Notes: generated by a model from the letters alone, not told the origin. A stretch of 64,000 bases of DNA from Gammaproteobacteria bacterium (GCA_018665025.1 JABJED010000264.1:6725-70724); one strand, 5' to 3'. Positions 9,472 to 33,903 are shown, counted from the first letter of the stretch. Translations and numbers: made by a program.

Positions 9472-12400
9472 TTAACCGACAATCCCATCTCGCAATACCG
9501 GAAATCTAACCTCAAACGTGGTTCCTTGCCCACCAATCAATCGAAACGAACCCTCGAGTTGCTCTACCAGGATCGACACGATCTCGAACCCCATGGATCC
9601 AGCTTCCGTATTGACCTCTATAGGCAAGCCGCGACCGCTGTCGGAAACGAAAATTACACACTCTTTTGCAAGCAGATATAACTTTACTTCTACGGTCCCT
9701 GAACCATGCTGCCTACCTTCAAAACCATGAATCAGCGCGTTACTGAACAACTCATTGATAATAAGCCCGCACGGGACTGCAAGGTCGATCGCAAGATCGA
9801 ACTCTCCCAACTCCTTCAGCAAATTAATTTCCAGCTCTTCAGAAACCAATTTTCGGTACAGCGTCGACAAGAGTACGTCGACATACTCGCCCATTGCGAC
9901 CCGTCTAACCTCTCTTGACTGATAAAGGCGTTCGTGAACTAACGCAATGGAACTGATCCTTCGCTCATTCTCACCCAGGATATTCAATATCACTGGATCA
10001 GAACATTTAGCGGATTGAATACTTAACAAACTCGTTAGCGTTCCAAGGTTGTCATAGACGCGATCATGGATTTCACGGAGGAGTACATCTTTCTCCGCCA
10101 GTACGGCACTGAAGTCAGTTCTTTGATCAGCATTTTTTACCAAGGTAATATCTAGCTGATTGTGCAGATTATTTAATTCTACTGTGAGCTGGCCGTGGCT
10201 AACCCTAAGTGCTTCCTGCTCTCGGCTTCGCTCTGTGACATCCCTCACGATACTGACGTATGCCACGCCGTCTTCAGGGGTTTCCAACGCCGGAGAGACG
10301 CTAATTTCGAGTATTTTTCCGGTCCCATCAGACATCAGGTAGGGAACCTCCTCCCGGAAGTTATTACCGCTATCAACGTACTCTTTTGCCTCATGACGCT
10401 GACCCGCTTGCTGGAACAGTATTTCAAAAAGCGGGTAGCCACCCACCTCGGACGGACGTTTACCAAGAACACCGGCTACCGCATTATTAGAGAACATCAC
10501 ATTCCCCTGTTGATTGGCATTTAGTACGCATTCAGCCGTGTCATCCAGGGATTCAACATAGCCTCTCAATCGTCTATTGAAACGGTCCTCTGCCTGCCGG
10601 TTGATTCTTTTCGAGCTGAATATCATCAGCTGATAGAGCGAAAACAGTGCTAAAGCAACATATACACAATACGCCCACCACGTAGCCCACAGAGGCGGAT
10701 TGATGGTTATGGGAATGCTAAGTCCATCCTCATTCCACACTCCATCACTGTTAGCCCCCTGGACTCGTAACAGATACGATCCAGGGTGGAGGTTTGTATA
10801 GGTGATGTTTCGATTGGTACCGTTGTCGATCCACCGGGCATCATAGCCCTCCAGTTTGTATTGATAACGATTTTTCTGGGGATAGGTGTAATCTAACGCT
10901 GCTACTTCGACTGACAGCCCGTTAACGCCATACTCAAGCTGTAACATTCCCCCGTTGGATAATTCAGCTTTCTTATTGTTTAGAAGAAGCTGTGTAACGC
11001 GAACCGGGGGAACATAATCGTTTCGTCGAACCTGCTCTGTTCGTACTACATTAACTCCCTCGTTTCCTCCAAATAAAAGTATCTCTGGAGTCAAGTTTAG
11101 GTCCGCATTAAAATTTAGCTCACCAACTTGAACACCGTGCTCATGGTCAAATTTCAACACCTTATCGGTACCGTCTAACCTCAATATTGAACCCGCGCTA
11201 GCGATCCAGACACTCTCATCAGCCGCGCTCAAGAGCCCATAAACCGCTGCTCCTTCAGTTAGATTTAATCCAACCTTGCGTTCTAACTCGTTGCTACTGA
11301 AATCGAAATAAAACAGACCTCCTTCCAGACCCCCAAACCAAATGCCATTCTGCGTCGCCAGAACGCTGATAATATCACCGCTAACAACCAATTCAGCTTC
11401 ACCTGTACCCAGTCGAGCCGTATCCCCAGTAACAGGATCCAAGCCGAAAACACCTTCGGCGGTACCTATCCACAAGGTTCCTAATGCATATTCGTCAATT
11501 TCATAACACCTAAGATCAGGAAACTGACCCGAAAGATTGCTCAGTTCAGGATATCTTTCAAAACCCTCTTCAATCGATACGAATCTATTTACACCTCCCC
11601 CGAAAGTAGACGTCCAAACATCACCAGTACTCGACAGATACAAATCAGTTATCGCATTTGAGCTCAAAGAAGCCTCCCTATCCTCCTCGTGAACAAAATG
11701 TGCAACCAATATCTGGTTAGAATAAAGGTAGACCCCATTCGAATAAGTTCCAATCCACAACTGATCGAAATTATCAAACAAAATATTCATCACATGGTCT
11801 GAAAACAATTCCCCAGCAGAATCCCGAAAATCTTGCATGGTTCCCGCTAGTGGATCCCAAATCACCACCCCCGAATGGGTCCCGACTGCGACCTTACCCA
11901 ACGAATCTACTGCTAACGAAGAAATGGAATCATCAACATCCAGACCTTCCAGTCCATAGATGGGGAATTGAGTAGTTTGGGTATTGAATGAACTTACCCC
12001 TTTAAATGTGCTCACCCAAATGACACCGCCAACATCTTGAAATAGGTCGTAAACCAAATCTCCTATTAGCCCCTCAGTCTTACGGGGATCATATGAGTAT
12101 GAATGTAGCTTCTGCTTATCTCTATTCCATTTATGCAGGCCCTTATCTGAACCAATCCAAATGTTTCCTAGATTGTCCTCGAGCAGGGCACGAACCCGCT
12201 TGTCTTCAAGGTCGCCACTTTCCGTAAAGCTCTGGAACACCCCCGTCTTTGAAAGAACCGAAAGACCATCATTGTATGTTGCGATCCACAGGTTACCTTC
12301 CATATCAAAAAGAAGCTCTCGGATATAAGCATCCGGGCCTACCCCATACTTCTCATCCATACCATCAGCCGCAACAAACCGGTTGCCTTCCTGCCGGAAC

Positions 12401-13047
12401 AAGCCATTCCTTTCTGTTCCAACCCAAAGCTGCCCTTCGGTGTCTTGCACTATCGCGCGAACGGGTTCCCTTAAAGAATCCAAATATTGAACTCTTTTAT
12501 CAGCGCCAGTCTTCACTGAGAAAACCCCTAGCGATGTTCCTACCAGAACTTCACCAGATTGAGCCTCATATATGACATAGACTTTTAATTCACTACCTTG
12601 AAGCAGTTCTATATGGCGGAAGCTCTGAGTCCCGGGATCATAGACCGAGAGCCCACCACCGGTGCCAACCCATAAAACACCAGAACTATCGACTAGCAGC
12701 GATCGAACAAAGTCATGTGGTATGGATTCAGCCACATCACCTTTCAAGTACTTCCGAACCTTATACCCATCAAATCGATTTAGACCACTCGTTGTTCCAA
12801 ACCAAATAAAACCGGCACCATCCTGAGCAATCGCTGTCACTTGAGATTGTGTCAACTGCACCTCAGGAGGCAGTCTTCTAAAAACTACCTGTTTCTCATC
12901 GATGGGAGGGACATTTTTGTTTGCGCCATACGCACCAGCGATCAACATTGAGACAAAAAAGGGCAAAAAAATTAGCTTGAGAAATTGAAAGAAAGTAAAT
13001 GAACGAATTTTTATGTTGTTAGAGCGCGCATTCCCTGGCCAGTTCAT
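9472..13047 (-). CDS. Periplasmic beta-propeller / Y_Y_Y sensor histidine kinase (HisKA_2-type), paralog 1
   Basis: N-terminal TM segment, many 'two-component regulator propeller' repeats (GLNRFDGY, LWVGTGGGLSVYD, NIWIGSDKGLHKW). Y_Y_Y module (NRYQYKLEGYDARW...YTNLHPGSYLLRVQG), then TM, PAS, H-box LLREIHDRVYDNLGTLTSLLSIQ and an ATPase domain (GLIINELFSNALIHGF, DSGRGLP). The start overlaps the upstream gene's stop (ATGA). Confidence 0.85.
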   Translation of the reverse strand: MNWPGNARSNNIKIRSFTFFQFLKLIFLPFFVSMLIAGAYGANKNVPPIDEKQVVFRRLPPEVQLTQSQVTAIAQDGAGFIWFGTTSGLNRFDGYKVRKYLKGDVAESIPHDFVRSLLVDSSGVLWVGTGGGLSVYDPGTQSFRHIELLQGSELKVYVIYEAQSGEVLVGTSLGVFSVKTGADKRVQYLDSLREPVRAIVQDTEGQLWVGTERNGLFRQEGNRFVAADGMDEKYGVGPDAYIRELLFDMEGNLWIATYNDGLSVLSKTGVFQSFTESGDLEDKRVRALLEDNLGNIWIGSDKGLHKWNRDKQKLHSYSYDPRKTEGLIGDLVYDLFQDVGGVIWVSTFKGVSSFNTQTTQFPIYGLEGLDVDDSISSLAVDSLGKVAVGTHSGVVIWDPLAGTMQDFRDSAGELFSDHVMNILFDNFDQLWIGTYSNGVYLYSNQILVAHFVHEEDREASLSSNAITDLYLSSTGDVWTSTFGGGVNRFVSIEEGFERYPELSNLSGQFPDLRCYEIDEYALGTLWIGTAEGVFGLDPVTGDTARLGTGEAELVVSGDIISVLATQNGIWFGGLEGGLFYFDFSSNELERKVGLNLTEGAAVYGLLSAADESVWIASAGSILRLDGTDKVLKFDHEHGVQVGELNFNADLNLTPEILLFGGNEGVNVVRTEQVRRNDYVPPVRVTQLLLNNKKAELSNGGMLQLEYGVNGLSVEVAALDYTYPQKNRYQYKLEGYDARWIDNGTNRNITYTNLHPGSYLLRVQGANSDGVWNEDGLSIPITINPPLWATWWAYCVYVALALFSLYQLMIFSSKRINRQAEDRFNRRLRGYVESLDDTAECVLNANQQGNVMFSNNAVAGVLGKRPSEVGGYPLFEILFQQAGQRHEAKEYVDSGNNFREEVPYLMSDGTGKILEISVSPALETPEDGVAYVSIVRDVTERSREQEALRVSHGQLTVELNNLHNQLDITLVKNADQRTDFSAVLAEKDVLLREIHDRVYDNLGTLTSLLSIQSAKCSDPVILNILGENERRISSIALVHERLYQSREVRRVAMGEYVDVLLSTLYRKLVSEELEINLLKELGEFDLAIDLAVPCGLIINELFSNALIHGFEGRQHGSGTVEVKLYLLAKECVIFVSDSGRGLPIEVNTEAGSMGFEIVSILVEQLEGSFRLIGGQGTTFEVRFPVLRDGIVG

Positions 13048-15107
13048 TCCAGGCTACGCAGATACTCGGTCATTTCAGCTGCAGGCATTGGTTTGCTGTA
13101 GTAAAAGCCTTGAATGTAGTCACAGCCATAGTCACGTAAAATCTCTAACTGCTCTTCATTTTCAACGCCTTCGGCCAGCGTCGTCAAATTCAAACTCTGA
13201 CCCATAGCAATAATGGCCTTGGTGATCTCTTTATCGTCTTCATCTATATGAAGGTCTTTGATAAAAGAGCGATCAATCTTTAAGGTCGTCAGTGGAAATC
13301 GTTTCAAGTATGACAATGAGCTATAGCCTGTGCCAAAGTCATCCATGCTGATGTTCACCCCGAGACGGCGTAAATCTTCGAGCATCGTTGTGTAGTGCTC
13401 CACATTCTTCATCGCCAGGCCCTCTGTGATCTCTATAGTCAAAGTCGACGGCTTTATTCCTGAAGTCGCCATCGCATCTTGAACTAGTGCCGACACATCT
13501 GTTTCAAACTGACGCGCACTGAAGTTTACTGCTACTCGAAAGCCGTCTAATCCCATATCTCCCCAGCTACGGATCTGGTTGCATACTTTTCTTAGCACAT
13601 ATTCACCCAGTGGCGTGATCAATCCAGTCGCTTCCGCAATGGGAATAAACTCTTCGGGGTCGATCATTCCTTCTTCCGGATCCGGCCAGCGCAACAGCGC
13701 TTCCATACTGGAAAGCTGTCCTGTTTCCAGGTCAATGATCGGCTGGTATTGAACGTCGAAAACACCCTCGACTAACGCCTTCTGCATCCCGTTTTTTCGA
13801 TCAATAAACCTTACGGCGTCTTCATACATCGCGTTGTCGAACACGACATATGAACCCTGAGCATCTGTCTTCGCACGATTCAGGGCGGTGTCGGCATCAC
13901 GCAGCATTTCATCCGCTGAATGATAATCGCCGCTATTCACTACGACCCCGACCGATGCTGTAATATTCAGCGCATTATCATTGACAGCAATAGGTTCCCG
14001 GACCGCAGTCGTGATTCGCTGACAGGCCTGTATCGACTCGGCCACTGCATCGACTGGATCCAACAGAACCGCAAATATATCGCCGCTAAACCGGGAAACT
14101 GTATCGTCATCGCGAATAATTTCCCTTATTCGCTTTCCAATTTCAGTGATGACCTTATCACCAACCTCGTGACCAAACCCTTCATTAATCACTGCGAAAC
14201 CATCAAGCCCGATGAATAGAACCGAGAACTCCCCCTGTTGGCCATCTCTTTCCCGCCGGTTAATCGATCGATTAAGTCGATCCACGAACAAGGCCCTGTT
14301 GGGAAGCTCTGTCAAACCATCAAAGAAGGCGTTTTTCTGAATTGTTTCCTCGTAACCGAGTTGTTGCGAAATGTCCCTAAAGGTAATAACCGTAAGATTA
14401 GAATCTTTGTCCAAAAAGTTTGCACTTAGTTCAATCGGTACTGTTCGTCCATCGGCTCGCGTAAGCATTTGTCGAATACCACTGAACTGCTTCCAGTAGG
14501 CAAAAGTTTCCGGACTCATCAGGTTGATGACCCCTTGCCCGGATTCGAACGCCTCCAGCTTGAAAAGATCATCGATGCCCATTCCAAATCCAGCCCCGGC
14601 CTCACAACCCACTATCTTCTCTGCCATAGGATTAATCAGGAATATCTTGCCACTTGCATCTGCTGCAATTACACCGTCGCTCACATTATTCAAAGTGGCA
14701 TCCAGGTTTTGCTTGGTGTCTGCCAGGTCTCGCTCTACTTTATGCTTAAAGAGAGCAATTTCTATATTTATAGAAAGTTCTCTGTTATCAAACGGCTTTA
14801 GCACATAGCCAAAAGGAGAGGTGACCTTGGCGCGCTGTAACACTTCATCGTTCGAATACGCGGTGCAGAAAATAACAGGGATCGACCTGGCTTCGTTAAT
14901 CTTCGTTGCTGCCTCAATACCATCCATTTCACCTCGGAGGTTAATATCCATAAGGATCAAATCCGGATTTTCACTCAAGGCAAGTTTTATGGCGTCCTCA
15001 CCTCTGGCAGCAGTACCAGCAACGGTGTAGCCCATACGCTCGAGACGAGCACGAATATCTCTTGCTACCAGCACCTCATCTTCAACAATTAAAACGCTAT
15101 TACTCAT
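13044..15107 (-). CDS. Response regulator REC-PAS-GGDEF(degenerate)-EAL; likely a c-di-GMP phosphodiesterase
   Basis: REC (LIVEDEVLVARDI, DLILMDINL). The GGDEF site reads RFSGDIFAVLL. The EAL domain looks intact (EALLRW, DDFGTGYSSLSYL, KIDRSF, AEGVE). Confidence 0.9.
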   Translation of the reverse strand: MSNSVLIVEDEVLVARDIRARLERMGYTVAGTAARGEDAIKLALSENPDLILMDINLRGEMDGIEAATKINEARSIPVIFCTAYSNDEVLQRAKVTSPFGYVLKPFDNRELSINIEIALFKHKVERDLADTKQNLDATLNNVSDGVIAADASGKIFLINPMAEKIVGCEAGAGFGMGIDDLFKLEAFESGQGVINLMSPETFAYWKQFSGIRQMLTRADGRTVPIELSANFLDKDSNLTVITFRDISQQLGYEETIQKNAFFDGLTELPNRALFVDRLNRSINRRERDGQQGEFSVLFIGLDGFAVINEGFGHEVGDKVITEIGKRIREIIRDDDTVSRFSGDIFAVLLDPVDAVAESIQACQRITTAVREPIAVNDNALNITASVGVVVNSGDYHSADEMLRDADTALNRAKTDAQGSYVVFDNAMYEDAVRFIDRKNGMQKALVEGVFDVQYQPIIDLETGQLSSMEALLRWPDPEEGMIDPEEFIPIAEATGLITPLGEYVLRKVCNQIRSWGDMGLDGFRVAVNFSARQFETDVSALVQDAMATSGIKPSTLTIEITEGLAMKNVEHYTTMLEDLRRLGVNISMDDFGTGYSSLSYLKRFPLTTLKIDRSFIKDLHIDEDDKEITKAIIAMGQSLNLTTLAEGVENEEQLEILRDYGCDYIQGFYYSKPMPAAEMTEYLRSLE

Positions 15108-18100
15108 TTATCGCTCTTGGGAAGCGAATCTGGAAAACAGCCCCATCATCATTATGTGCGGACAGCGTGCCTTCAAGCTGCTCGGTCAAAATTGTTACAA
15201 TTTCCAGCCCCATCGACGTGTTCTTACTAAGATCAAAGTCTGGCGGGAGGCCAGAACCGTTGTCCGATATCCGCAGATCAAAGCTACAATCAGTGGTTAC
15301 AAAATCAATATCTATAATCCCTGTCTCCTCCTTATCATGAAATGCGTGCTTCAAAGAATTCGATACAAGCTCGTTGATTATGAGACCGCATGGAACGGCA
15401 GTCTCCAGGTCCAACACTACATTCTCTACGTTGACTTCCACGAAAACTGAGACTCCCGGAACCACGTATGATCGACTTAAGCTGTTGGTTAGTAACTCTA
15501 TGTAATCTTGAAAGTCTATGTTCAAAAGATCTTTTGATTGGTAGAGCGATTCATGAATCAGCGTCATCGACTTGATTCGCTGCTGACTTTCGTTAAGCAG
15601 GCTTGAATAAACCTCGTCGTCTACACCCTCCGCCTGGATGCTTAACAGGCTGGAGATGACCTGCATGTTGTTCTTCACACGATGATGGACTTCTTTGATC
15701 AATAGTTCTTTTTCAGCTAGTGAATTTTCGAGAGCCTGCTGTTGCAGTAGGCTTTTGCTAACTTCTTCCTCCAACTTACTCGTTCTTTCTATAACCTGCG
15801 TTTCAAGGTTTCTTGAATAGTGCTCCAGCTGAAGTTCAGTTTCCTTTCTCTGCGTGATATCTCGCGCAATCGCAATCAACGTCACGACACCCTGATACTC
15901 AGTTCGCGCAACGCTAATCTCATAAAATTTTTCCACCGCCAGTCGGCGAACCACTTCGGTGGAGAATCGCCCCGACTCCACAACACGAGATTCCACTTCG
16001 GCTCTCTCGTCAGCTGAATCAAAGAGCGTTTCTAGTAACTGACTACCAACGCCAGAGTCTAGCTCTGGGGTTTTAAACAACGCCAAAAACAGTGCATTTT
16101 GGTACTCGATGACGCCTTCTTCCGACGCAATTGCTATCGCGTCCGTGGCTTGCTCTAACGTCTGGATGTACTTTTCAAGGCGTGCTCGATGACTATCTTC
16201 AGCGATCCTCGCCATCCGCTGTGCGTTTAATCTATAGATGCCGGTTAAAACCAATACCGCCAAAATAAGGTAGCCCAAATAGGCCCACCAGCTCTGAAAC
16301 CAGGGAGGAAGTACATTTAGCTCAACCGCTAGCTGGTCACTTGACCATATTCCATCACCGTTGGTCGCCCTTACCCTAAAGGTGTATCTGCCGGGGTCCA
16401 GATTGGTATAAGCCACTGACCTATCGTTACCTGCTTTTACCCAATCAGGTTCGAATCCCTCTAACTGATATTCATACTGGTTTCGTAACGGACTAGAGTA
16501 GTCCATCGCTCCGTATTCAAACTCGATCACGTAGTCGTCGTGTTCAATTTCAATCTGGCTGGACTCAGTAAACGGTCTGTCGAGCGCGAAGTTTTTGTTC
16601 AGTTTTTTAAAACCGGTTAACTCCACCTTGGGTGAAAATGTACTCGACTTAATTTCTAAAGGATTGAAGGCATTAAAACCGGAATTCCCGCCGTACAAAA
16701 AGGTGCCGTCCATCATTCTTAGATAGGCGCCGTTGTTAAAATCGTCCGCTTGAAGCCCATGGCTAGTGTCGTAGATGTCCCACTGCCCCTCTTCCTTCAG
16801 AACTGACAACCCTTTCCCACCGCTCACCCACGCGCCGAGATTATCGTCTTCGAGCACGCCATAGGCTGCTACCGACGAGAGACCGTCTTCTTTAGTGATA
16901 CGAGTGACTTCTAACGTTGTCGGATCCACAAGGCTCAGGCCGGCGTCTCTGGCCCCTACCCACATCCCCCGAGCACCTTTAGAAACGGATACAAGGTTAT
17001 CGGAAGCTATCGTGCTCCGCTCCTCGGCATTGTGCCTGAGCGTTGTCACAACCTCATTCTCGGGATCAAGAATCATCAAGCCACCACCGTTGCTCGCGAT
17101 CCAAATATTACCCAGTACATCCTCTGCAACATCAGTTATTCGGAGGTCGGAAAATTCAGTCTTATTGTTGGGGTAGTGCTTGAACGAGGTACCGCCTTGG
17201 TATAAATCCAGACCGGTTCCATACAAACCAACCCAAATCCGCTTTTGGCTATCGACAAAGACTTTACTTACCTGGTCGCTAGCCAGGCTAGATGCCTTGC
17301 TGCTTGCTGTGTATTGTCGGGTTAACCCTGTGTTCACAGTGAAGGCAGTCAATCCGCCGTTCATCGTTCCAATCCAGACCGTAGAGTTCTCTTCTTGCTC
17401 TTCAACCGCCAAGGCCATCACTCGGTTGTCTCTGAGAGCAAAGTCATCTATTCGGCGGAACTCACCACTCGTTTTGTCATAGGCTGTTAGGCCAGTAAAA
17501 GTTCCAATCCATAAGGTTGTTTTATCTTCAGCAAAAGACGTGATGCTGTTGCCAGCCAGCTCCCCTCCTGTGTTGCGATCCATCTTGTAAAGCGCAAACC
17601 TGGGAGCGGCGGAATTCCATTTCGATATACCATTATAGGTACCCACCCAGATTACCCTGCCCGCATCTTCAAACAACGCGGACACCTTATTATCTGATAA
17701 AGAGCTTGGATCACTGCCTTTGTGCGTGAAATTTGAGGATGTGCCTTCTTCCTGATCTAAAACGAATAATCCATCATCCGTGCCTACCCAAATTCGGCCT
17801 TCGCTGTCGCTTAACAGGTTTCTCGTTCTAGTCGTCGCAGTGCCTTGGACTGACTCTAATGGTTGATATTGGAACTGTAGTGTCGTCGTGTCGCCGCGCC
17901 ATAAACCATTGTTGAAGGTTGCTACCCAAAGAAAACCTTTGGGACCTACCATCAGGCTCCTGATCATGTTGCCTGGTAGGTCAGTATCGTAGAACCCTCG
18001 CGTAAAACGGATAATTTCACCACTGTCAGGGTTCAGCCGCGACAGGCCACTAGGGTCGGTTCCTACCCAGATATTACCCTGGGTGTCTTGTTCAATAGCG

Positions 18101-18642
18101 TGAACTGCACCTTGACCCAGCGTTTGGGGATCAACAGCCTCATGCCGATAGTGTGTTAGCGAACTTTCGCTCGTTATCTTGATCAACCCAGCGCCTGTAC
18201 CAACCCACAAGCTACCATCAGCGTCAACAAACAATGCTCGGATGGAACTATCGCTGCCGGTGACAGGGGTAGTTGCTTCTCTTATATCGACTATATCGAC
18301 GCGGCGGAAGGTTGATGTCGCAGCGTTAAAGACGTTCAATCCGTTGTCAGTACCGATCCATATGTTTCCTTGAGAGTCCTCGACTATCGCCGAAACATAA
18401 TCGTGTGACAGGGATGTCAGGTCAGCTTGAACGTTAAAAAACGTTTCAAACTTCTCTCCGTCGTAAATGTTTAATCCTTCAGTCGTACCTATCCAGACCA
18501 GCCCACTCGAATCTTGAGTGATAACATTTACCGTCGTTTGAGATAGTCCTTCTCTCGTGTTGATTCGCTCAAATGTTGGATTCAGACGGTTTACCAGGTC
18601 AGAGGCGGACACTTCCCCGACACTAATTAACCCTAGAACCAA
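15100..18642 (-). CDS. Periplasmic beta-propeller / Y_Y_Y sensor histidine kinase (HisKA_2-type), paralog 2
   Basis: Same architecture as 9472..13047: propeller repeats, NQYEYQLEGFEPDW...YTNLDPGRYTFRVRA, TM, PAS, canonical H-box EVHHRVKNNMQVISSLLSIQ, and GLIINELVSNSLKHAF...DNGSGLP. The track start is TTG 18642. An in-frame CTG at 18657 would give a better signal peptide (MKYAFLVLGLISVGEVSA). The stop overlaps the REC-EAL start (ATGAGTAA). Confidence 0.85.
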   Translation of the reverse strand: MVLGLISVGEVSASDLVNRLNPTFERINTREGLSQTTVNVITQDSSGLVWIGTTEGLNIYDGEKFETFFNVQADLTSLSHDYVSAIVEDSQGNIWIGTDNGLNVFNAATSTFRRVDIVDIREATTPVTGSDSSIRALFVDADGSLWVGTGAGLIKITSESSLTHYRHEAVDPQTLGQGAVHAIEQDTQGNIWVGTDPSGLSRLNPDSGEIIRFTRGFYDTDLPGNMIRSLMVGPKGFLWVATFNNGLWRGDTTTLQFQYQPLESVQGTATTRTRNLLSDSEGRIWVGTDDGLFVLDQEEGTSSNFTHKGSDPSSLSDNKVSALFEDAGRVIWVGTYNGISKWNSAAPRFALYKMDRNTGGELAGNSITSFAEDKTTLWIGTFTGLTAYDKTSGEFRRIDDFALRDNRVMALAVEEQEENSTVWIGTMNGGLTAFTVNTGLTRQYTASSKASSLASDQVSKVFVDSQKRIWVGLYGTGLDLYQGGTSFKHYPNNKTEFSDLRITDVAEDVLGNIWIASNGGGLMILDPENEVVTTLRHNAEERSTIASDNLVSVSKGARGMWVGARDAGLSLVDPTTLEVTRITKEDGLSSVAAYGVLEDDNLGAWVSGGKGLSVLKEEGQWDIYDTSHGLQADDFNNGAYLRMMDGTFLYGGNSGFNAFNPLEIKSSTFSPKVELTGFKKLNKNFALDRPFTESSQIEIEHDDYVIEFEYGAMDYSSPLRNQYEYQLEGFEPDWVKAGNDRSVAYTNLDPGRYTFRVRATNGDGIWSSDQLAVELNVLPPWFQSWWAYLGYLILAVLVLTGIYRLNAQRMARIAEDSHRARLEKYIQTLEQATDAIAIASEEGVIEYQNALFLALFKTPELDSGVGSQLLETLFDSADERAEVESRVVESGRFSTEVVRRLAVEKFYEISVARTEYQGVVTLIAIARDITQRKETELQLEHYSRNLETQVIERTSKLEEEVSKSLLQQQALENSLAEKELLIKEVHHRVKNNMQVISSLLSIQAEGVDDEVYSSLLNESQQRIKSMTLIHESLYQSKDLLNIDFQDYIELLTNSLSRSYVVPGVSVFVEVNVENVVLDLETAVPCGLIINELVSNSLKHAFHDKEETGIIDIDFVTTDCSFDLRISDNGSGLPPDFDLSKNTSMGLEIVTILTEQLEGTLSAHNDDGAVFQIRFPRAINE

Positions 18643-18861
18643 GAATGCGTACTTCAGTGTCCTTAAATGCTTAAAAATGTATAACCCCTCATTCTTGCTC
18701 TACCCAACGGGCGATCCCTGCGCTATTGAGTTACCACACAAAATCAGACCCTTCTATGTCTGACCAACTTTCACCTTCTATCTTTCCGATAAGCTCTTTA
18801 ATACCCGTGACTAAAGCAGCACTTTGCGATGTATCAGACATCTTGATGCCTAATTCTTCCG

Positions 18862-19761
18862 TTAGGTCTCTAACTGAAGCTCAGGACCACTCGGCAATAA
18901 GGTTGGCGTCGCATCACGCCATAAGAACCTTGCAAGCTGCGGTGCATCTACCTGCTTTTCAGGGGCTTCATCCCACAGGAACCTCGCTAAGTCCTGTTCT
19001 TCCGGCCATTGCTTTTCGTCGTAATCCCGAAGTTGCCAATAAAAACCGGCTAATAGGTGGTCTGGATCTAGCGTGCCCTGCAGCGGGGCCTGCTCACTCC
19101 ATTGAAGCTCAGGACCACTCGGCAATAAGGTTGGCGTCGCATCACGCCATAAGAACCTTGCAAGCTGCGGTGCATCCACCTGCTTTGCAGGGGCTTCATC
19201 CCACAGGAACCTCGCTAAGTCCTGTTCTTCCGGCCATTGCTTCTCGTCGTAATCACGAAGTTGCCAATAAAAACCGGCTAATAGATGGTCTGGATCTAGC
19301 GTGGCCTGCAGCGGGGCCTGCTCACTCCATTGAAGCTCAGGACCACTCGGCAATAAGGTTGGCGTCGCGTCACGCCAGAGGAACCTTGCAAGCTGTGGCT
19401 GAGCATCCTTGCTCAAAGTAACATCCTGTAGCGCGGCACTTTGCTTCGCGGGTTCTTCTTCCCATAAAAAGCGGGCCAATAGTTGGTCCGGGTCAAGCGT
19501 TGCCTGTTCGCTCCATTGAAGCTCCTGGTTGCTCGGCAATGCGGTTGGACTCGCATCCCGCCATAAAAACCGTGCCAGCAGAGGATCAGGCTGGACATCC
19601 CTGCCCACAACTTGCGTGTTGTCAGCCTCCGTGCGCCGTGTCTCATCCACCGATATTAGCGAGTCGTTCTGTCTCAGTATCCCGTCCTCACGTGCCAAGG
19701 ACGAATGGAAGCTGGTCAGACAAAATATTATCGCGACCGTATAAAGAAAAATCTTCTGCAT
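18862..19761 (-). CDS. Secreted acidic Trp-rich tandem-repeat protein ('LARFLW' repeats), function unknown
   Basis: Signal peptide MQKIFLYTVAIIFCLTSFHSSLA. Six LARFLW modules plus one LLARFLW variant and two LLAGFYW modules, including two near-identical 76-aa units. GGAG Shine-Dalgarno 8 nt before the ATG. I recognise no known family. Confidence 0.75.
   Translation of the reverse strand: MQKIFLYTVAIIFCLTSFHSSLAREDGILRQNDSLISVDETRRTEADNTQVVGRDVQPDPLLARFLWRDASPTALPSNQELQWSEQATLDPDQLLARFLWEEEPAKQSAALQDVTLSKDAQPQLARFLWRDATPTLLPSGPELQWSEQAPLQATLDPDHLLAGFYWQLRDYDEKQWPEEQDLARFLWDEAPAKQVDAPQLARFLWRDATPTLLPSGPELQWSEQAPLQGTLDPDHLLAGFYWQLRDYDEKQWPEEQDLARFLWDEAPEKQVDAPQLARFLWRDATPTLLPSGPELQLET
18876..19400. 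repeat. 228-bp tandem DNA repeat: two full copies plus a partial third, inside the repeat-protein gene
   Basis: GAAGCTCAGGACCACTCGGCAATAAGG recurs at 18876, 19104 and 19332 (period 228 = 76 codons). Copies 1 and 2 differ at about 6 positions by eye. A more diverged copy starts near 19518. Confidence 0.9.
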
Positions 19762-19801
19762 CTGCTAGTGCTCCAACAATTGGTTTATCGCCGGTATAGT
19801 A

Positions 19802-19817
19802 TGCAGTCTTTGTGCCA
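19802..19817 (-). promoter_or_regulatory. Sigma-54 (-24/-12) promoter for the repeat-protein / kinase operon
   Basis: The minus strand reads TGGCACAAAGACTGCA. Against the consensus TGGCACG-N4-TTGCW, the GG and GC are at exact spacing. It lies about 40 nt upstream of ATG 19761 and directly downstream of a sigma-54 activator gene. Confidence 0.7.
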
Positions 19818-19903
19818 GCTCTGTAAGAACTTCTATGGCATTGATTTAATTAAAGATTTTTGGGGAGGAAGGTGTTGATCGGTCAAAAATGGTCATTTAT
19901 GGC

Positions 19904-19933
19904 GAAAAATATCGGCGTATTCGCCGTTTTTTT
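19904..19933. terminator. Short hairpin with flanking T/A runs after the activator gene (weak terminator; could also be part of an activator binding site)
   Basis: CGGCG-TATT-CGCCG (19913-19926) with T7 on the + side and ATATTTTT on the minus side. Confidence 0.35.
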
Positions 19934-19951
19934 ACCGCTTATATTTTCATT

Positions 19952-22822
19952 TTAGAAAATATTGGCGAATTCTTCTGTCATTCGACGATAGGTTGGCAGT
20001 GACACACCCAGCAGTTGCGCGCAAACGCTGCGGCTTAGTTTTCGGTCTTGGAGTTCGCTCATCAACAGCGCCGCCAGGATATCCAGCGGCTGCGCTGATT
20101 CCAGCGAAGCCATTTTCATCACTTCATGATACAACTCAGGGGTAACCGGCCATTCAGCTGGTCGTTCAGCCTCGAGAGAGCCGTAGGTTGCCTCCATTTT
20201 CTGGACCTTTCGGCGCAGTGTTGATTCCGGTACCGCAATCGAAAGTGCTGCACGGTTAAGCACACCATCGTGATGTTTAATGCTCATGAGGATGAAATCC
20301 TCCTCAAGGTAGCGTCCAACCGCCACAGGTTTACTGCCGCTGGCCCCCACATCTACCACTGCTTGTAAAATTGGCCGCAGCCCAATAGTTGTTCGAGGCG
20401 GTTCATGGCGCTCGGTTACGCCGCTAAAAACACCTACCTGGATCGCGGTAATCAATTGGTCCTTGCTCAGTATCACCGCCCGGTTAACCACATTCGACAG
20501 CTCTCGGATGTTACCTGGCCAAGCGTAATCCAGAAGAGCTTGTTCAGCATCGGCAGTAAAACCTGTGACCGTTTTGTTGTAGCGGGCAGCAAAATGCTGC
20601 AGGTAGTATCGAGCCACTTTCAAGATGTCGGCCTGTCGATCACGCAGCGGCGGTACAGCAATTGAAAAGACATTGAGCCGGTAATAAAGGTCTTCCCTGA
20701 ACCTGCCTTCACCCACCATCTCCTTAAGATCTCTGTTGGTAGCAGCAATAACCCGGGCATCAACTGTTTCATACTGGTTAGAACCAACTGCCGCGACCTG
20801 CCTGTCCTGGACGAACCGCAGAAGCTTTACCTGAGTGTCTAATGGTAATTCACCAATTTCATCAAGCAAAACTGTTCCACCATTCGCTTCTTTCAGTCGC
20901 CCGGTGAAGTTGGATGTCGCCCCGGTAAAAGCACCCTTGACGTGACCAAAAAGCTCACTCTCAATCAGGCTGGGTGCCACCGCGCCGCAATCCACGACAA
21001 CCAGCGGCTTATTCCTGCGGCTGCCTTCGTGGTGAATGTACCTGGCGACGACTTCCTTGCCGGTACCTGACTCACCTAAGAGCAGTACCGTAACATCTGT
21101 GGGTGCCGCAAGGTCTGCAGTATCAAGCACATGCTGCATTTCCGCAGAATCATAAACCAGCTGCTGATCCGTCGAATCAAGGACCTGAACAGGCTCCGGC
21201 TCAACATCAAAGCGTGAAATACTGCTGCCGAAGTAGGTACTTAATGAGGACAGAAAGGGCTGGTCCTCATCACTAAACTCACCACCCGACAAGAAGAGCA
21301 CCCATCGCCCTGCCAGATCAAACAACGCCGTATCGCTGCTCAACTGATCATGCCAATCTCCTTTTGATACCGCTTTGATAGCGGAAAATTCACGTTCACT
21401 TAATTCCAGACCTGATATATCGCCAGCCTTGCCATTACTTTGGGTATACCCAACCTCAAGATTAATCTTGTCATCGGCAACGCTGAGTAGCGCCGAACGC
21501 TGTGTCCTAAACACATGGAAAAGGTGTCGACAGAATTCATCACACATCGTGTCAAGGTCATTGGCCGTGGCTAGTGCATTCATCACATTCCACAGCAACA
21601 CGACGTGCCGGTAGTCTTGGCTGCCGCTCATCTCTCTCGAATCGATATCGGGTTCACCGCCATCAACCCAAAGACGATTACCACCTGAACGTCTTGCTGT
21701 ATCCAGCGCAGAAGTGGCACGGCGAAACAATTCAATCGGTTCCTGATCCCCTCCGGTGCTATGGGCAAGCCCGGCACTAAAGGTAAACGGCTTGCCCGAA
21801 TGCTCGTATTCATTGAGTTGCTCCAGAAGCGCAAAAGCGATCTGCTCACCAGCTGTCACAGTGGTGTAGGGCAAACTAACAGATACCATAGAATTAGCGA
21901 ATATACTGACCAGGTCGGTCGCTCTCATGGATGAGTCGAGCCTGGCACGCACATCTTCAACAATTTCAGCTAAAACCGCGCTGGTCGCGCCGTCCGGCGA
22001 GATCAACACCTGGCAAAAAGATGATTCACTGGGGGACAGTTGACCTGAGCCAAGCATGGCATATCTTTCTGTAGCGCCAAGTTTTACAGGGTCTTCGATA
22101 TCGCCAAGATCTCTCAGGATCAATACCGCACCCTCGTCCATGGGGCCTACAATACCATCGACCAGCTTGGTGGTACCGGGCGCGCGCTGCATTAGAAAAG
22201 GTGGCAGCTTAGTCAGGTTCTTGTCACGTAGCGCACTTTTTACGTTACCGGCGACTGATGATTTTTCACCAAGCACTTGACGCCAGGCGGCACCCGTATC
22301 CAGGTCCCGCCCCAGCAATTCTCGGGCATCCTGGTTGATGTTGATGATTTTGCCTTCCTGGTCTAAAAAAATCAGTGCATTGCCAATACAGGCAAGTGCG
22401 GTTTCCAGCAGCTGTTGTTTTTCTTTGAGCTCTTTTTCTACGCGAAATTTATACAGCGCCATTTCAATCGTGATTTGTAGATCACGATTCTCAACAGGCT
22501 TAATGATGTATCCAAAGGGAGTGACTGTTTTGGCTCTGGCAACCGTGTCTTCATCAGAGAAGGCCGTGAGAAAAACAATCGGAATGTCCATCAACGCCTG
22601 GATTCTTTCGGCCAGGTCGATACCACTTAAACCGTGGCGCAGCTGAATATCACTTAGCAAGAGGTCCGGCCGGGTTTCAAGCGCGAGTTCAACCGCTTCT
22701 TCGCCGAAAGCAATGCCAACGACTTCCCAACCCATCTTTGTGAGCCTTTGCCGAATTTCATGCGCGATCAGCGCTTCATCTTCTACGATGAGAATTTTTG
22801 CCGGAGCCGATTCCTCAGTCAC
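19952..22822 (-). CDS. Sigma-54-dependent response regulator with extra sensory domains (REC-PAS-degenerate GGDEF-GAF-like-AAA+-HTH)
   Basis: REC (ILIVEDEALIAHEI, DLLLSDIQL). The GGDEF-like fold lacks the motif (SIFANSMVSVSL...FSAGLAHS...ALDTARRSGGNRLWV). AAA+ core (LLLGESGTGKEVVARYIH, ELFGHVKGAFTGA, GGTVLLDEIGEL, RVIAATNRDL). HTH (ALSIAVPESTLRRKVQKM) plus a second HTH-like tail (VCAQLLGVSLPTYRRM). GTG start with a GAGG Shine-Dalgarno. Confidence 0.9.
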   Translation of the reverse strand: MTEESAPAKILIVEDEALIAHEIRQRLTKMGWEVVGIAFGEEAVELALETRPDLLLSDIQLRHGLSGIDLAERIQALMDIPIVFLTAFSDEDTVARAKTVTPFGYIIKPVENRDLQITIEMALYKFRVEKELKEKQQLLETALACIGNALIFLDQEGKIININQDARELLGRDLDTGAAWRQVLGEKSSVAGNVKSALRDKNLTKLPPFLMQRAPGTTKLVDGIVGPMDEGAVLILRDLGDIEDPVKLGATERYAMLGSGQLSPSESSFCQVLISPDGATSAVLAEIVEDVRARLDSSMRATDLVSIFANSMVSVSLPYTTVTAGEQIAFALLEQLNEYEHSGKPFTFSAGLAHSTGGDQEPIELFRRATSALDTARRSGGNRLWVDGGEPDIDSREMSGSQDYRHVVLLWNVMNALATANDLDTMCDEFCRHLFHVFRTQRSALLSVADDKINLEVGYTQSNGKAGDISGLELSEREFSAIKAVSKGDWHDQLSSDTALFDLAGRWVLFLSGGEFSDEDQPFLSSLSTYFGSSISRFDVEPEPVQVLDSTDQQLVYDSAEMQHVLDTADLAAPTDVTVLLLGESGTGKEVVARYIHHEGSRRNKPLVVVDCGAVAPSLIESELFGHVKGAFTGATSNFTGRLKEANGGTVLLDEIGELPLDTQVKLLRFVQDRQVAAVGSNQYETVDARVIAATNRDLKEMVGEGRFREDLYYRLNVFSIAVPPLRDRQADILKVARYYLQHFAARYNKTVTGFTADAEQALLDYAWPGNIRELSNVVNRAVILSKDQLITAIQVGVFSGVTERHEPPRTTIGLRPILQAVVDVGASGSKPVAVGRYLEEDFILMSIKHHDGVLNRAALSIAVPESTLRRKVQKMEATYGSLEAERPAEWPVTPELYHEVMKMASLESAQPLDILAALLMSELQDRKLSRSVCAQLLGVSLPTYRRMTEEFANIF

Positions 22823-22864
22823 TCTAACCTCGCTTCACACAGTGCCTGTATAAGTGGCATGTGG

Positions 22865-29710: not shown

Positions 29711-30965
29711 ATGAACGAACTTTGCGCAAAAACCGCCGTGGAACTTCGCAACCTGATTGGCGAAAAAGAAATCAGCGCCGTCGAATTACTGGATGCCCAT
29801 CTCGAACAGATCGAGTTAACCAACCCCTCGTTGAACGCCATCGTGACCCTGGTCCCGGATCACGCTAAAGAGATGGCGCAAAAAGTCGACCATCAAATTG
29901 CAAGAGGTGAAAAACCCGGGTTGCTGGCAGGACTCCCTATTGCACATAAAGACCTTGTTCAAACCAAAGCTATCAGAACAACTTTTGGCTCACGGCTGTT
30001 TGAAAATTTCGTCCCTAAGGAAAATGCGCTGATCGTGCAGCGCCTGATTGATGCCGGCGGCAGATGGCAGCGACATGGGTGGTTCGCTCCGGAATCCTGC
30101 TAGCTTCTGTAACGTTGTCGGGTTCAGGACCAGCGCTGGTCGGGTGCCTGCCTATCCTGTCCCTGATGGCTGGAGCAACCTTGGCGTCCTCGGCCCGATG
30201 GCGCGCACTGTTTCAGATTGCGCATTGATGCTGGCCGCCATTACAGGGCCAGATGACAGAACACCCATTTCACTGCCTGATTCTGCAGCGCTATTTCTGC
30301 AAACACTAGATAGCGATCAACAGGGGGCCCGTGTTGCTTTCTCAACTGACTTCGGGGGACAACTCCCGGTCGAACCAGCCGTCCGGAATGTTATTACACA
30401 GGGCGTGCAAGTGTTGTCGGATATTGGTTGCAAGGTCAGTGAAAGCTGTCCTGACTTCAGTGGGGCGGATGAAGTGTTTAAGACTCTGCGAGCATGGAGC
30501 TTTGCGTCACGCCATGGAGAAGATATCAAGCGGTATCCAGAACAGTACAAGGAAACTATTATCTGGAATGTCGAAGCAGGATTGAAACTCTCCGGCACTG
30601 ATGTCTCAGAAGCAAACAAAGCACGCACCCAAATTTACCAGCGCGTTAACAGCTTCTTCCAGGACTATGACTTCCTGGTACTGCCGGTATCCCAGGTAGC
30701 ACCCTTCCCCCTCACCAACGAGTACGTTACCAGCATCAACGGCACCCGGATGGAAACGTACATAGACTGGATGAAATCCTGCTACTACATCACCGTCACA
30801 GGCCTACCAGCGATCTCGATACCATGCGGATTTACGCCGGAGGGGTTGCCGGTCGGCATACAGATCATTGGCAAACCACTACAGGAACTGGCCGTCCTGA
30901 GGATCGCCTATGCCTTTGAACAGGCAACAAACACCTGGAAAACCCAGCCCAACATCTGTATCTAA
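29711..30965 (+). pseudogene. Amidase-signature (GatA-like) amidase disrupted by an out-of-frame internal deletion
   Basis: The N-terminal part (MNELCAKTAVELRNLIGEKEISAVELLDAHL...LIVQRLIDAGG) ends out of frame at 30103. The C-terminal part resumes in another frame at 30051 (MPAADGSDMGGSLRNPASFCNVVGFRTSAGRVP...). The GKTN...GGSSGG block that normally lies between these segments is absent. Confidence 0.75.
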
Positions 30966-31043
30966 CAGCGCTCTTATCGACAAACTTCAACTATCCGCAA
31001 ACTTCATGCATAGGCAAGCAGGATCAGCTATACTGCGCGCAGT

Positions 31044-31116
31044 TCCTTGGGGGTGGTATTACACCTGAGATCAAACCCCAGAACCTGATCCGGTTAGTCC
31101 CGGCGTAGGAAAAGGA
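31044..31116 (+). promoter_or_regulatory. TPP (thiamine pyrophosphate, THI-box) riboswitch aptamer
   Basis: TCCTTGGGGGTGGTATTACACCTGAGATCAAACCCCAGAACCTGATCCGGTTAGTCCCGGCGTAGGAAAAGGA. It has GGGGUG, CUGAGA, ACCC, GAACCUGAUC-CGG...CCGGCGUAGG and a closing P1 (TCCTT/AAGGA). Confidence 0.85.
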
Positions 31117-31147
31117 TGATCGCTAAATCTCCCATTACGTCCATACC

Positions 31148-31177
31148 GGGTCTCTTATTTTTTTACTGGAGAGACTC
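31148..31177 (+). promoter_or_regulatory. Riboswitch expression platform: helix sequestering the Shine-Dalgarno of the TonB receptor gene
   Basis: GGGTCTCTT (31148-31156) pairs with GGAGAGACTC (31168-31177), which contains the GGAGAG Shine-Dalgarno just before ATG 31178. Confidence 0.5.
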
Positions 31178-33259: not shown

Positions 33260-33903
33260 TGACGGATTTTTTGTCCTCGGCGCTGGGTGAATTCCACCAG
33301 AACTCGTTACTCGAACTAAGCGCTGTTGTCCTTGCTATTGCCTACCTCTTACTGGCAGTGCGCCAGCACATCGCCTGCTGGTATGCTGCATTCATCTCGA
33401 CAGCTATCTTCCTGTACGTCTTCTGGCAGGTAAATCTGTATATGGAATCTGGTCTACAGGTTTACTACCTGGGGATGGCGGTTTATGGATGGTGGGCATG
33501 GCAACGTGGAAGGAGTGAGGGCAAGTCTGGGTTAACAATCAGCACCTGGTCACTCAGACAACACCTGATCGTAATCGGAATAGTAGTGGCCGCAACCTTT
33601 GTCAGCGGCAGCCTGCTATCCGGCACGGAACAGCGGCTTGGTTATCTGGATTCTTTTACTACCTGGGGCGCTGTCGTCGCGACATTTATGGTGACCAGAA
33701 AGGTCCTGGAAAACTGGCTCTATTGGATCGTCATTGATAGTGCATCGCTCTACCTGTACTTCGACAGAGAGCTTTATTTCACCATGATTCTTTTCCTTGT
33801 GTACCTGGTCATCATCTTCTTCGGTTTCCGAAGTTGGCTCAGGGAGTACAGACTTGAAGCTCAAGATGACCCAACTCACGCAAATCTGGCGATAAAACGA
33901 TAA
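33256..33903 (+). CDS. PnuC-family (nicotinamide riboside / thiamine PnuT-type) inner-membrane transporter
   Basis: About 7 TM segments, WQVNLYMESGLQVYYLGMAVYGWWAW, NWLYWIVIDSASLYLY. The start overlaps the receptor stop (ATGA). Confidence 0.75.
   Translation: MMTDFLSSALGEFHQNSLLELSAVVLAIAYLLLAVRQHIACWYAAFISTAIFLYVFWQVNLYMESGLQVYYLGMAVYGWWAWQRGRSEGKSGLTISTWSLRQHLIVIGIVVAATFVSGSLLSGTEQRLGYLDSFTTWGAVVATFMVTRKVLENWLYWIVIDSASLYLYFDRELYFTMILFLVYLVIIFFGFRSWLREYRLEAQDDPTHANLAIKR

Follow-up and report, generated by a model that had tools for sequence, protein, structure and literature searches.

Periplasmic sensors with two Reg_prop beta-propellers and a Y_Y_Y domain are described from the hybrid two-component systems (HTCS) of Bacteroides (BT4663, PDB entries 4A2L and 4A2M; 3V9F; 3OTT and 3VA6), where a HisKA and HATPase_c transmitter, a receiver (REC) and an AraC-type DNA-binding domain follow in the same chain and the whole controls polysaccharide-utilisation loci. 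The only mention of a Reg_prop/Y_Y_Y kinase outside Bacteroides that we found calls its sensor function unknown (PMC6637768). A different DHp/CA type is that of PhyK-PhyR, LovK and EL346 (4R39, 4R3A), mostly cytoplasmic or light and stress sensors of Alphaproteobacteria; the PhyK-PhyR class is tied to a partner-switching sigma-factor cascade, and its kinases often act through single-domain receivers (PMC5964349, PMC12148442). Here we describe a five-gene region (positions 9472-22822, minus strand) that joins a sensor of the HTCS kind to a transmitter of the PhyK kind. It lies in a stretch of 64,000 nucleotides from a Gammaproteobacteria bacterium (GCA_018665025.1, JABJED010000264.1:6725-70724), hereafter the window. 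With moderate confidence in the scheme as a whole, we read the region as one copy of a regulatory module conserved in marine gammaproteobacteria of the Pseudomonadales type (OM182/Azotimanducaceae, Halieaceae and relatives). Its membrane sensor kinase probably has two targets under its control, a sigma-54 activator and an enzyme that degrades cyclic di-GMP (c-di-GMP).

All five minus-strand genes have the boundaries given to them in a preliminary description of the window, and Pfam recovered every domain named there. In order of transcription they are the activator ACT (19952-22822), a gene for a repeat protein that we call X (18862-19761), the kinase K1 (15100-18642), the REC-EAL regulator RECEAL (13044-15107) and a second kinase, K2 (9472-13047). 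K1 and RECEAL overlap by 8 nt, read directly as ...AATGAGTAATAGC... with the K1 stop TAA within ATGAGTAA, and RECEAL and K2 overlap by 4 nt (ATGA, within ...GGAATGAACTGG...). A terminator scan found no minus-strand terminator-like site between X and K1, which together with the downstream overlaps makes co-transcription of X, K1, RECEAL and K2 plausible.

We compared the region with related loci (L-numbers) and related proteins (P-numbers), taking layouts from tblastn and gene calls and 2.9 Mb of such loci as background DNA; one of them, L005, is a long-read contig riddled with frameshifts. The order ACT, X, kinase, REC-EAL recurred in L016, L010, L015, L092, L093, L094/L095, L098, L099 and L105. 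X, kinase and REC-EAL occurred without an adjacent activator in L090 and L091, and L097 also has one or other of these two orders. An array open reading frame (ORF) lies downstream of the promoter in L012, and in L026 the activator is preceded by the C-terminus of an X-type gene and followed by two propeller proteins. The L016 activator, from a complete OM182 genome, is 60% identical to ACT; that of L015, a Halieaceae locus with a different neighbourhood, is 38% identical. Most loci lie downstream of malate synthase G, and because L015 and L026 do not, the linkage is more than an inherited position. All homologs of the kinase with at least 40% identity and enough upstream flank have X upstream and RECEAL downstream. 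The five-gene order of the preliminary description thus stood in part: activator, X, kinase and REC-EAL stay linked down to 38% activator identity, but the second kinase does not belong to this set. Judged by gene order, the conserved core is ACT, a sigma-54 promoter, X, one propeller HisKA_2 kinase and a REC-PAS-GGDEF-EAL protein with a degenerate GGDEF domain. More distant kinase homologs (25-31% identity) have neither X nor the activator; the gene next downstream encodes a REC-PAS-LytTR regulator of the same REC type, as in the pairs at L103:1770-6328 and L111:6800-11325. These neighbours show the wider family to be a split pair of propeller-HisKA_2 kinase and REC-PAS-output regulator, in which the REC-PAS cassette stays with the kinase and the output is swapped by lineage.

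ACT is a sigma-54 enhancer-binding response regulator of the NtrC class (956 aa). From its N-terminus it carries REC, PAS, a degenerate GGDEF-like domain, a GAF-like domain and AAA+, followed at the C-terminus by two putative helix-turn-helix (HTH) units (AlphaFold2, pLDDT 76). Pfam matched Response_reg (PF00072, E 1.2e-19), Sigma54_activat (PF00158, E 6.7e-66) and AAA_lid_14. Its Walker A motif (GESGTGKE) and GAFTGA loop are intact. In an alignment of 28 orthologs, 41-90% identical, the stretch that holds both motifs and the receiver residues D58, T86 and K108 are all invariant. Aligned with structures 5euh and 4zmm, the GGDEF-like segment sets RATD-LVSIF-ANSMV opposite RxxD-x5-GGEEF: the active site is replaced by ANSMV, with no GG[DE]EF diguanylate cyclase motif, and R300, T302 and D303 of the RxxD site are invariant in 28/28 orthologs. 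Loss of the cyclase site together with retention of the inhibitory-site motif suggests that ACT binds c-di-GMP. Pfam HTH_8 had no match in the window's ACT and is found in several orthologs (PF02954); the model shows helical bundles at residues 815-880 and 896-955, with conserved PESTLRRK and SLPTYRR. The gene starts with GTG, 5 nt after a GAGG. In the window (22823-22864), as in almost all loci (L001-L016, L090-L099), it follows malate synthase G (glcB) at a distance of 42 nt, and it may be co-transcribed with glcB; in L090 and L091, which have no adjacent ACT, X still comes after glcB.

Between ACT and X lies the near-consensus sigma-54 promoter that had been proposed there. This -24/-12 element, TGGCACAAAGACTGCA (19817-19802, minus), is intergenic, about 40 nt upstream of the X ATG, and scores 10/11 against TGGCAC-N5-TTGCW with its GG and GC ten bases apart. 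Its significance comes from its position and from its conservation across loci. Elements that score at least 10/11 with GG and GC fixed stand between ACT (or malate synthase) and the downstream gene in nine diverged loci, against a background of 0.012 hits per kb over the 2.9 Mb. The sequences are TGGCACAAAGGCTGCA in the window and L094, TGGCACAGGGATTGCT in L006, TGGCACGGCATGTGCA in L010, TGGCACGGCTTGTGCT in L016 and L091, TGGCACGCCTTCTGCA in L012, AGGCACGGTCTTTGCT in L015 and TGGCACGGGTTGTGCT in L090. Along with the intact GAFTGA and Walker A motifs of ACT, this conservation supports the sigma-54 wiring of the region. No rpoN was found among the scanned ORFs of the 64-kb window.

Upstream of the promoter, a candidate enhancer, or upstream activating sequence (UAS), spans 19899-19969 (minus) and contains direct copies of TTCGCCAW at 19969-19962 and 19906-19899 and the inverted repeat CGGCGAAT. 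The inverted repeat makes a hairpin (19926-19913) that was also scored as terminator-like; because its stem is not kept in L094 and it overlaps TTCGCCA-type repeats, we take this hairpin after ACT to be a possible part of the UAS and not an established terminator. Across nine lineages, the density of TCGCC[AG]/[CT]GGCGA upstream of the promoter is 2.44 per 200 nt, compared with 0.28 in the background, an enrichment of about 9-fold. TCGCCA/TGGCGA, extended to TTCGCCAW, is the most shared non-A/T hexamer upstream of the promoters (8/9 lineages), and nowhere else in the window do two exact TTCGCCAW copies fall within 100 nt. We propose that the TTCGCCA repeats are putative enhancer sites of ACT.

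The second regulator, RECEAL, consists of REC, PAS, GGDEF and EAL domains (Pfam Response_reg, PAS, GGDEF and EAL, the last with E 4e-73). Its GGDEF domain had been marked as degenerate, and indeed the motif reads SGDIF and the A-site is degenerate in 13/13 lineages. By contrast with that site, EAL, N, ExTE, DDFGTGYSS, KID, EG[VI]E and QG are all kept across the 13, and RECEAL is predicted to be a dedicated, phosphorylation-controlled c-di-GMP phosphodiesterase. NCBIfam gave partial matches to DibA, PvrR and similar models, all under cutoffs.

The preliminary description had quoted similar strings from the C-terminal ends of the two receivers, called them unusual and taken the regulators for paralogs served by the same kinases. 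Both strings are present, and the paralogy is borne out: the two REC domains are 44% identical over 169 aa (E 2e-42), and the more distant ACT orthologs align with the window's RECEAL over ~400 aa, a likeness that reaches into PAS and the degenerate GGDEF, so that ACT and RECEAL share a REC-PAS-GGDEF cassette. The pattern itself is common. More than 600 stretches fitting [IV][VI]EDEAL[VI]A / P[FY]GYIIKP, from bacterial and archaeal phyla, were counted among the matches listed, and we rejected it as a sign of a special shared kinase. The best REC-only match of RECEAL is PhyR (101 bits, versus 65 for AtoC), the ACT receiver also matches PhyR, and PhyK is the top NCBIfam match of both kinases. 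By these profile matches, the signature is the mark of the PhyR-type receiver class, which fits HisKA_2 kinases at the family level. In L019 (10001-12472) and L053 (333-2396), malate synthase is followed by an activator-like REC that is fused to the REC-EAL gene or lies next to it, and the activator body, X and K1 are missing; the arrangement looks like recombination between the two paralogous REC-PAS cassettes.

K1 comprises a periplasmic double beta-propeller with Y_Y_Y, one transmembrane helix, PAS, HisKA_2 and HATPase_c, and K2 is a lineage-specific propeller/Y_Y_Y/PAS/HisKA_2 kinase that is 30% identical to it. In the two proteins Pfam matched Reg_prop (E 5e-46 and 3e-36), Y_Y_Y (2e-19 and 1e-19), PAS and HATPase_c. 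The K1 H-box is EVHHRVKNNMQ (HisKA_2, E 6e-28), and H986, N1090 and D1127-G1129-G1131 are invariant in nine kinase sequences. Among known structures, the K1 sensor matched 3V9F (E 6e-82), 4A2L (8e-80) and also 3OTT (the three lying within E 1e-43 to 1e-82), and its transmitter matched the HWE/HisKA_2 kinase EL346 (4R39, E 9e-14). The start of K1 is less clear-cut. Translation from the listed TTG (18642) yields a poor signal peptide, MVLGLISVGEVSA. The motif GAGG-N8-ATT at 18678 is conserved, being present in L094 too; a start there would produce the signal peptide FKHLRTLKYAFLVLGLISVGEVSA, and L097 has ATG at this position. An ATT start at 18678 is possible on this comparison. The in-frame sequence upstream, ...IFKHLRTLKYAFLVLGLISVGEVSA (18642-18702, minus), aligns with the signal peptides of orthologs, and the Shine-Dalgarno sequence of K1 overlaps the old protease stop codon.

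X, which the preliminary description took for a dedicated repeat protein, is a predicted-exported array of 299 aa built from the motifs LARFLW[RDE][DE] and LAGFYWQL (seven LARFLW and two LAGFYW variants), with a signal-peptide-like N-terminus (MQKIFLYTVAIIFCLTSFHSSLA). Tandem Repeats Finder located a tandem duplication of 228 nt at 18875-19395 (minus; 2.3 copies, 96% identical), which is recent and expanded the array; the copy number varies between strains. Close homologs are few, 165-384 aa long and variable in repeat number. The AlphaFold2 model (pLDDT 29) has no fold and one short helix per motif, and X is predicted to be disordered, its short linear motifs following one another in an array. 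Pfam and NCBIfam hold no family for the array; weak matches to VERL and Fibrinogen_BP were rejected as compositional noise.

In at least 12 related loci the slot of X is filled by a secreted subtilisin-like (S8) protease of 700-1150 aa. It measures 1029 aa in L016 and 779 aa in L010, with Pfam Peptidase_S8 at E 2e-49 in these two loci, and the family includes P0130-P0140, P0143 and P0152. Full-length members run from a signal peptide through a LARYLWDE array, an I9-like propeptide, Peptidase_S8 and a C-terminal W-repeat array to a [KR]WVxQE tail. The N-terminal motif has the consensus L-A-R-Y/F-L-W-D/E-E/D (151 instances from 20 proteins), and the C-terminal W-repeats are lineage-specific: GTLWNT, GQVWNV, GFIWNLSxPENA, QGLLWTYGDVEN and GFLWQYSDFENQ. 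Complete members (P0131, P0132, P0143, P0152, L010:8037-10376 and L016:13147-16236) end in [KRQ]WV.[QSP]E, with the variants KWVSQE, RWVESE, ARWVKQE and QWVLPE; this tail may be a sorting or recognition signal. Nothing was found in Pfam, NCBIfam or the searchable literature for the N-terminal array, the C-terminal array or the tail, and the relatives of X define a secreted subtilase family with two W-centred short-motif arrays that database models do not cover.

What became of the protease in the window is clearest from L094/L095, a strain ~94% identical to it in the flanks and with the same gene layout. There X is the 702-aa protease P0143, whose signal peptide is nearly that of the window's X. 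In BLASTN, the window ceases to match L094 at 19445 and matches it again from 18613. Comparison of frame translations of the window, L006 and L094 with P0143 and L005 revealed a decayed subtilase remnant of ~180 nt in one frame at 18689-18868 (minus), in three pieces: DLTEELGIK, with which the I9-like propeptide begins; SQSAALVTGIKELI, the counterpart of the catalytic-Ser motif GTSQSAAVVSGI; and SDFVW-stop-LNSAGIARWVEQE-stop, the C-terminal tail with an internal stop. The window keeps the tail solely as this debris (ARWVEQE-stop). Beyond these ~60 decayed codons, no S8 domain or catalytic triad was found anywhere in the 64-kb window. Given the BLASTN break, the debris in the spacer and the lack of an S8 domain, the window's X arose, as read from these alignments, by an internal deletion that left an array-only ORF, with debris of the protease in the 220-nt spacer behind it. 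What had looked like a dedicated repeat protein is thus the N-terminal array of a subtilase gene that has lost its catalytic part here and keeps it intact in close relatives, and an annotation of "hypothetical repeat protein" plus 220-nt "spacer" would stand for a split pseudogene with a neo-ORF. L006-L009 share the deletion junctions of the window. In L015 (Halieaceae) a stand-alone array with VAGYVWEF/VAGFVWED motifs arose independently.

Against L006, the dN/dS of X is 0.24 at dS 0.73 over 215 codons, a ratio that gene conversion can distort on repeats; neighbouring genes have 0.13-0.15. The motifs are invariant, and the array-only haplotype occurs in two genomic backgrounds and several samples, with identical copies of X in GCA_018700415.1, GCA_018661335.1 and two metagenomes. 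The substitution pattern indicates that array-only X is under purifying selection and not dead.

These features fit the following scheme. The cargo of the module is normally a Sec-exported subtilisin-like protease flanked by two W-centred motif arrays; in the window strain the internal deletion has taken away the protease, the array-only X is retained and a diverged K2 is appended. K1 would bind a periplasmic ligand, and K2 probably another one. Both kinases would autophosphorylate and pass phosphate to the two paralogous PhyR-type receivers. Phosphorylated ACT, itself transcribed separately, would act from the TTCGCCA sites to open the sigma-54 promoter and so raise X, K1, the phosphodiesterase and K2 as one transcript, a positive autoregulation, and phosphorylated RECEAL would lower c-di-GMP. 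Through its RxxD site, ACT might return a c-di-GMP signal to transcription.

Several observations count against this scheme. Taken by itself, TGGCACAAAGACTGCA is not significant in the window, where 4 matches with at most one mismatch compare with 2.9 expected; we rejected the within-window count as evidence and used cross-locus conservation instead. L090 and L091 keep the promoter with no adjacent activator and L013 has an activator ortholog without the remaining module genes, so the pairing of activator and promoter is not obligate. K1 has no canonical start codon giving a good signal peptide in the window strain. The H-box of K2 (EIHDRVYDNLG, HisKA_2 E 3.5e-18) keeps its His, but the neighbouring residues (HDRVYDN) deviate. 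The RxxD site of RECEAL is unconserved outside the window's subclade. Finally, HisKA_2 kinases often signal via single-domain receivers (PMC5964349), and phosphotransfer might therefore be indirect.

What K1 senses is where the strongest alternative begins. Homology suggests a glycan-like molecule as the ligand, and the persistent linkage of X to the kinase together with the retention of the array suggests X itself. In this second reading the W-motif arrays, either whole or cut into peptides by the fused S8 protease or by another protease, would be recognised by the K1 propellers, in the periplasm or once they had re-entered it. An extended form makes the module a self-inducing peptide circuit, with sigma-54 autoinduction and c-di-GMP hydrolysis as outputs and the fused S8 domain as a maturation protease; X and the K1 sensor would be exchanged between strains as specificity cassettes, and the window strain would be a protease-less, array-making variant. 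We consider X as the ligand possible but not likely, and the extended form about as probable. X and the kinase are always adjacent in the clade of at least 40% kinase identity, often only 3-8 nt apart; X is predicted to be exported and disordered, with short linear motifs in an array; in the window, and separately in L015, the array has outlived the protease under purifying selection; and the C-type motifs vary by lineage (GFIWNL, GTLWNT, GQVWNV, GLLWTY, GFLWQY). The N-type motif, on the other hand, is identical in all cassette types, the sensor is homologous to glycan-binding HTCS domains, and the distant kinase homologs have no X.

Sequence variation between close strains bears on the same question. 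Between the window and L094, sliding nucleotide identity is 44-72% in a hypervariable block at 16050-19650 (minus), which covers the body of X and K1 residues 1 to ~860 and ends near the transmitter; the value is 93-96% in ACT, the phosphodiesterase and K2. When L097 is the comparison, K1 identity per 100 aa is 65, 50, 45, 61, 52, 75 and 70%, then 92, 99, 97, 96 and 92%, and the phosphodiesterase is 94-97% identical. The periplasmic part of K1 has dN ~0.3 with saturated dS, the cytoplasmic part a dS of 0.083 against L097, which argues that the sensor types are old alleles exchanged by recombination rather than products of recent mutation. There are at least three such alleles (window/L006, L094 and L097). 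A block composed of X and the K1 sensor is reminiscent of polymorphic signal-receptor cassettes, and our first reading was strict co-variation of the two, as in pherotypes. That reading is weakened by L094 and L097, which have nearly the same X C-terminus, yet K1 sensors only 60-75% identical; variation in the sensor is not tied to X type, strict co-variation is not shown, and adjacency alone could make neighbouring segments co-recombine. Retention of the array after loss of the protease and wholesale replacement of the K1 sensor between near-identical strains point to a specific, evolutionarily dynamic input.

The model taken from the preliminary description has the two propeller kinases jointly sense one periplasmic signal, aided by a dedicated repeat protein, and lets that signal branch into c-di-GMP hydrolysis and sigma-54 transcription. 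The kinases do share an architecture and flank the phosphodiesterase with overlapping frames, and the 44% identity of the two receivers also fits a common input. We nevertheless regard this model as quite unlikely. The second propeller kinase drops out of the core: K2 is confined to the window group and L016. L094 and L097 have it as well as L016; it is missing from most orthologous loci, L090-L093 and L010 among them, and in L006-L009 it has no residues ~184-658, most of the propeller. The sensors of K1 and K2 are only ~30% identical, and hypervariability is confined to K1, the K2 sensor being conserved; on both grounds the ligand of K2 probably differs from that of K1. The supposed accessory is a deletion derivative of a protease gene. 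The shortened K2 of the sister lineage measures 565 aa (L006:16492-18189; also in L008, L009 and L096) and keeps PAS-HisKA_2-HATPase_c.

Simple decay, in which the cargo is broken, the array-only ORF is nonfunctional and stays open through slippage of a 228-nt (76-codon) unit, and the regulators are orphaned or being lost, would suit the pseudogenised protease body, the lack of a K1 start yielding a good signal peptide, the deleted K2 sensor of the sister lineage and the apparent loss of activator, X and K1 in L019 and L053, but is improbable given the purifying selection and invariant motifs of X, the spread of its haplotype over two backgrounds and several samples, the recent expansion of the array, and the dN/dS of 0.1-0.2 and intact catalytic motifs of K1, RECEAL and K2.

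Elsewhere in the window, the only Rfam match is a TPP riboswitch (RF00059, 65 bits) at the head of a plus-strand unit (31039-33903). The genes behind it, for a TonB-dependent receptor (31178-33259) and a transporter of the PnuC family (33256-33903), likely make up a thiamine-uptake unit with it. An amidase ORF at 30048-30965 (plus) matches only positions 143-445 of its Pfam model, its N-terminal third seemingly missing or frameshifted, and a HAMP-domain class III adenylate/guanylate cyclase (37382-38812, minus) adjoins an ORF without a Pfam family (36316-37359). Opposite-strand ORFs within the module, such as 18726-19421 (plus, 231 aa), lie inside repeat DNA and were rejected as unsupported. 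Scans of the whole window for sigma-70 promoters (8 promoter-like sites, 20.8 expected from shuffles) and terminators (18 terminator-like sites, 17.0 expected) were not above chance.

How the parts of the module differ from their described counterparts can now be set out. Among REC-(PAS)-GGDEF-EAL phosphodiesterases, examples are RavR and PdeR of Xanthomonas, and PvrR and RocR are REC-EAL proteins. RECEAL shares with this group intact REC phospho-acceptor residues, a degenerate GGDEF and a full EAL set; it differs in having a propeller-HisKA_2 kinase as its partner and in belonging to a sigma-54-driven operon with a secreted protease gene. VpsR is a c-di-GMP-responsive enhancer-binding protein, and FleQ binds c-di-GMP on its AAA+ domain. 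ACT, unlike FleQ, has an inserted degenerate GGDEF whose RxxD is invariant in the 28 orthologs, and its c-di-GMP binding is predicted from sequence; it would be a testable new route coupling c-di-GMP to sigma-54 transcription. FleQ itself is a sigma-54-family AAA+ activator in a c-di-GMP context (PMC3424551), and our literature search found no described activator with the domain order of ACT.

The relatives of X share Peptidase_S8 and an I9-like propeptide with the S8 proteases that carry I9-type propeptides ("AprX" in some sources), and add the LARYLWDE array, the W-repeat array and the [KR]WVxQE tail; the window's X has no catalytic domain. Staphylococcus (agrBDC) and Bacillus (comQXP) have polymorphic cassettes of signal and receptor, and in yeast an S8 kexin cuts a pheromone precursor that contains multiple copies (alpha-factor/Kex2). 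The module resembles agrBDC and comQXP in pairing a hypervariable secreted repeat gene and the adjacent sensor half with a conserved kinase half and conserved regulators. Here, however, variation in the sensor is not strictly tied to X type, and a periplasmic propeller does the sensing in place of a polytopic membrane domain.

Compared with the PhyK-PhyR class, whose receiver model both RECs match, the module has a large periplasmic sensor, comes from Gammaproteobacteria and fuses REC-PAS to enzymatic or AAA+ outputs. Compared with HTCS, K1 and K2 stop after HATPase_c, use PAS and HisKA_2 and carry no REC or HTH, the outputs residing on separate proteins. The cargo is a protease or motif-array gene, not glycan uptake, and the linked neighbours (malate synthase G, enoyl-CoA hydratase, acyl-CoA dehydrogenases and similar genes) do not form a polysaccharide-utilisation locus. 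Our literature searches found no description of the split HTCS-like/HisKA_2 architecture, of the sigma-54 activator bearing a degenerate GGDEF, of the motif-array subtilase cargo or of the sensor hypervariability. The building blocks, a two-component system, a sigma-54 activator and an EAL phosphodiesterase, are familiar. Their combination, which appears not to have been described before, is conserved in a widespread marine clade whose members are mostly uncultured, and it provides a split form of the HTCS propeller sensor outside Bacteroides, joined to another class of transmitter.

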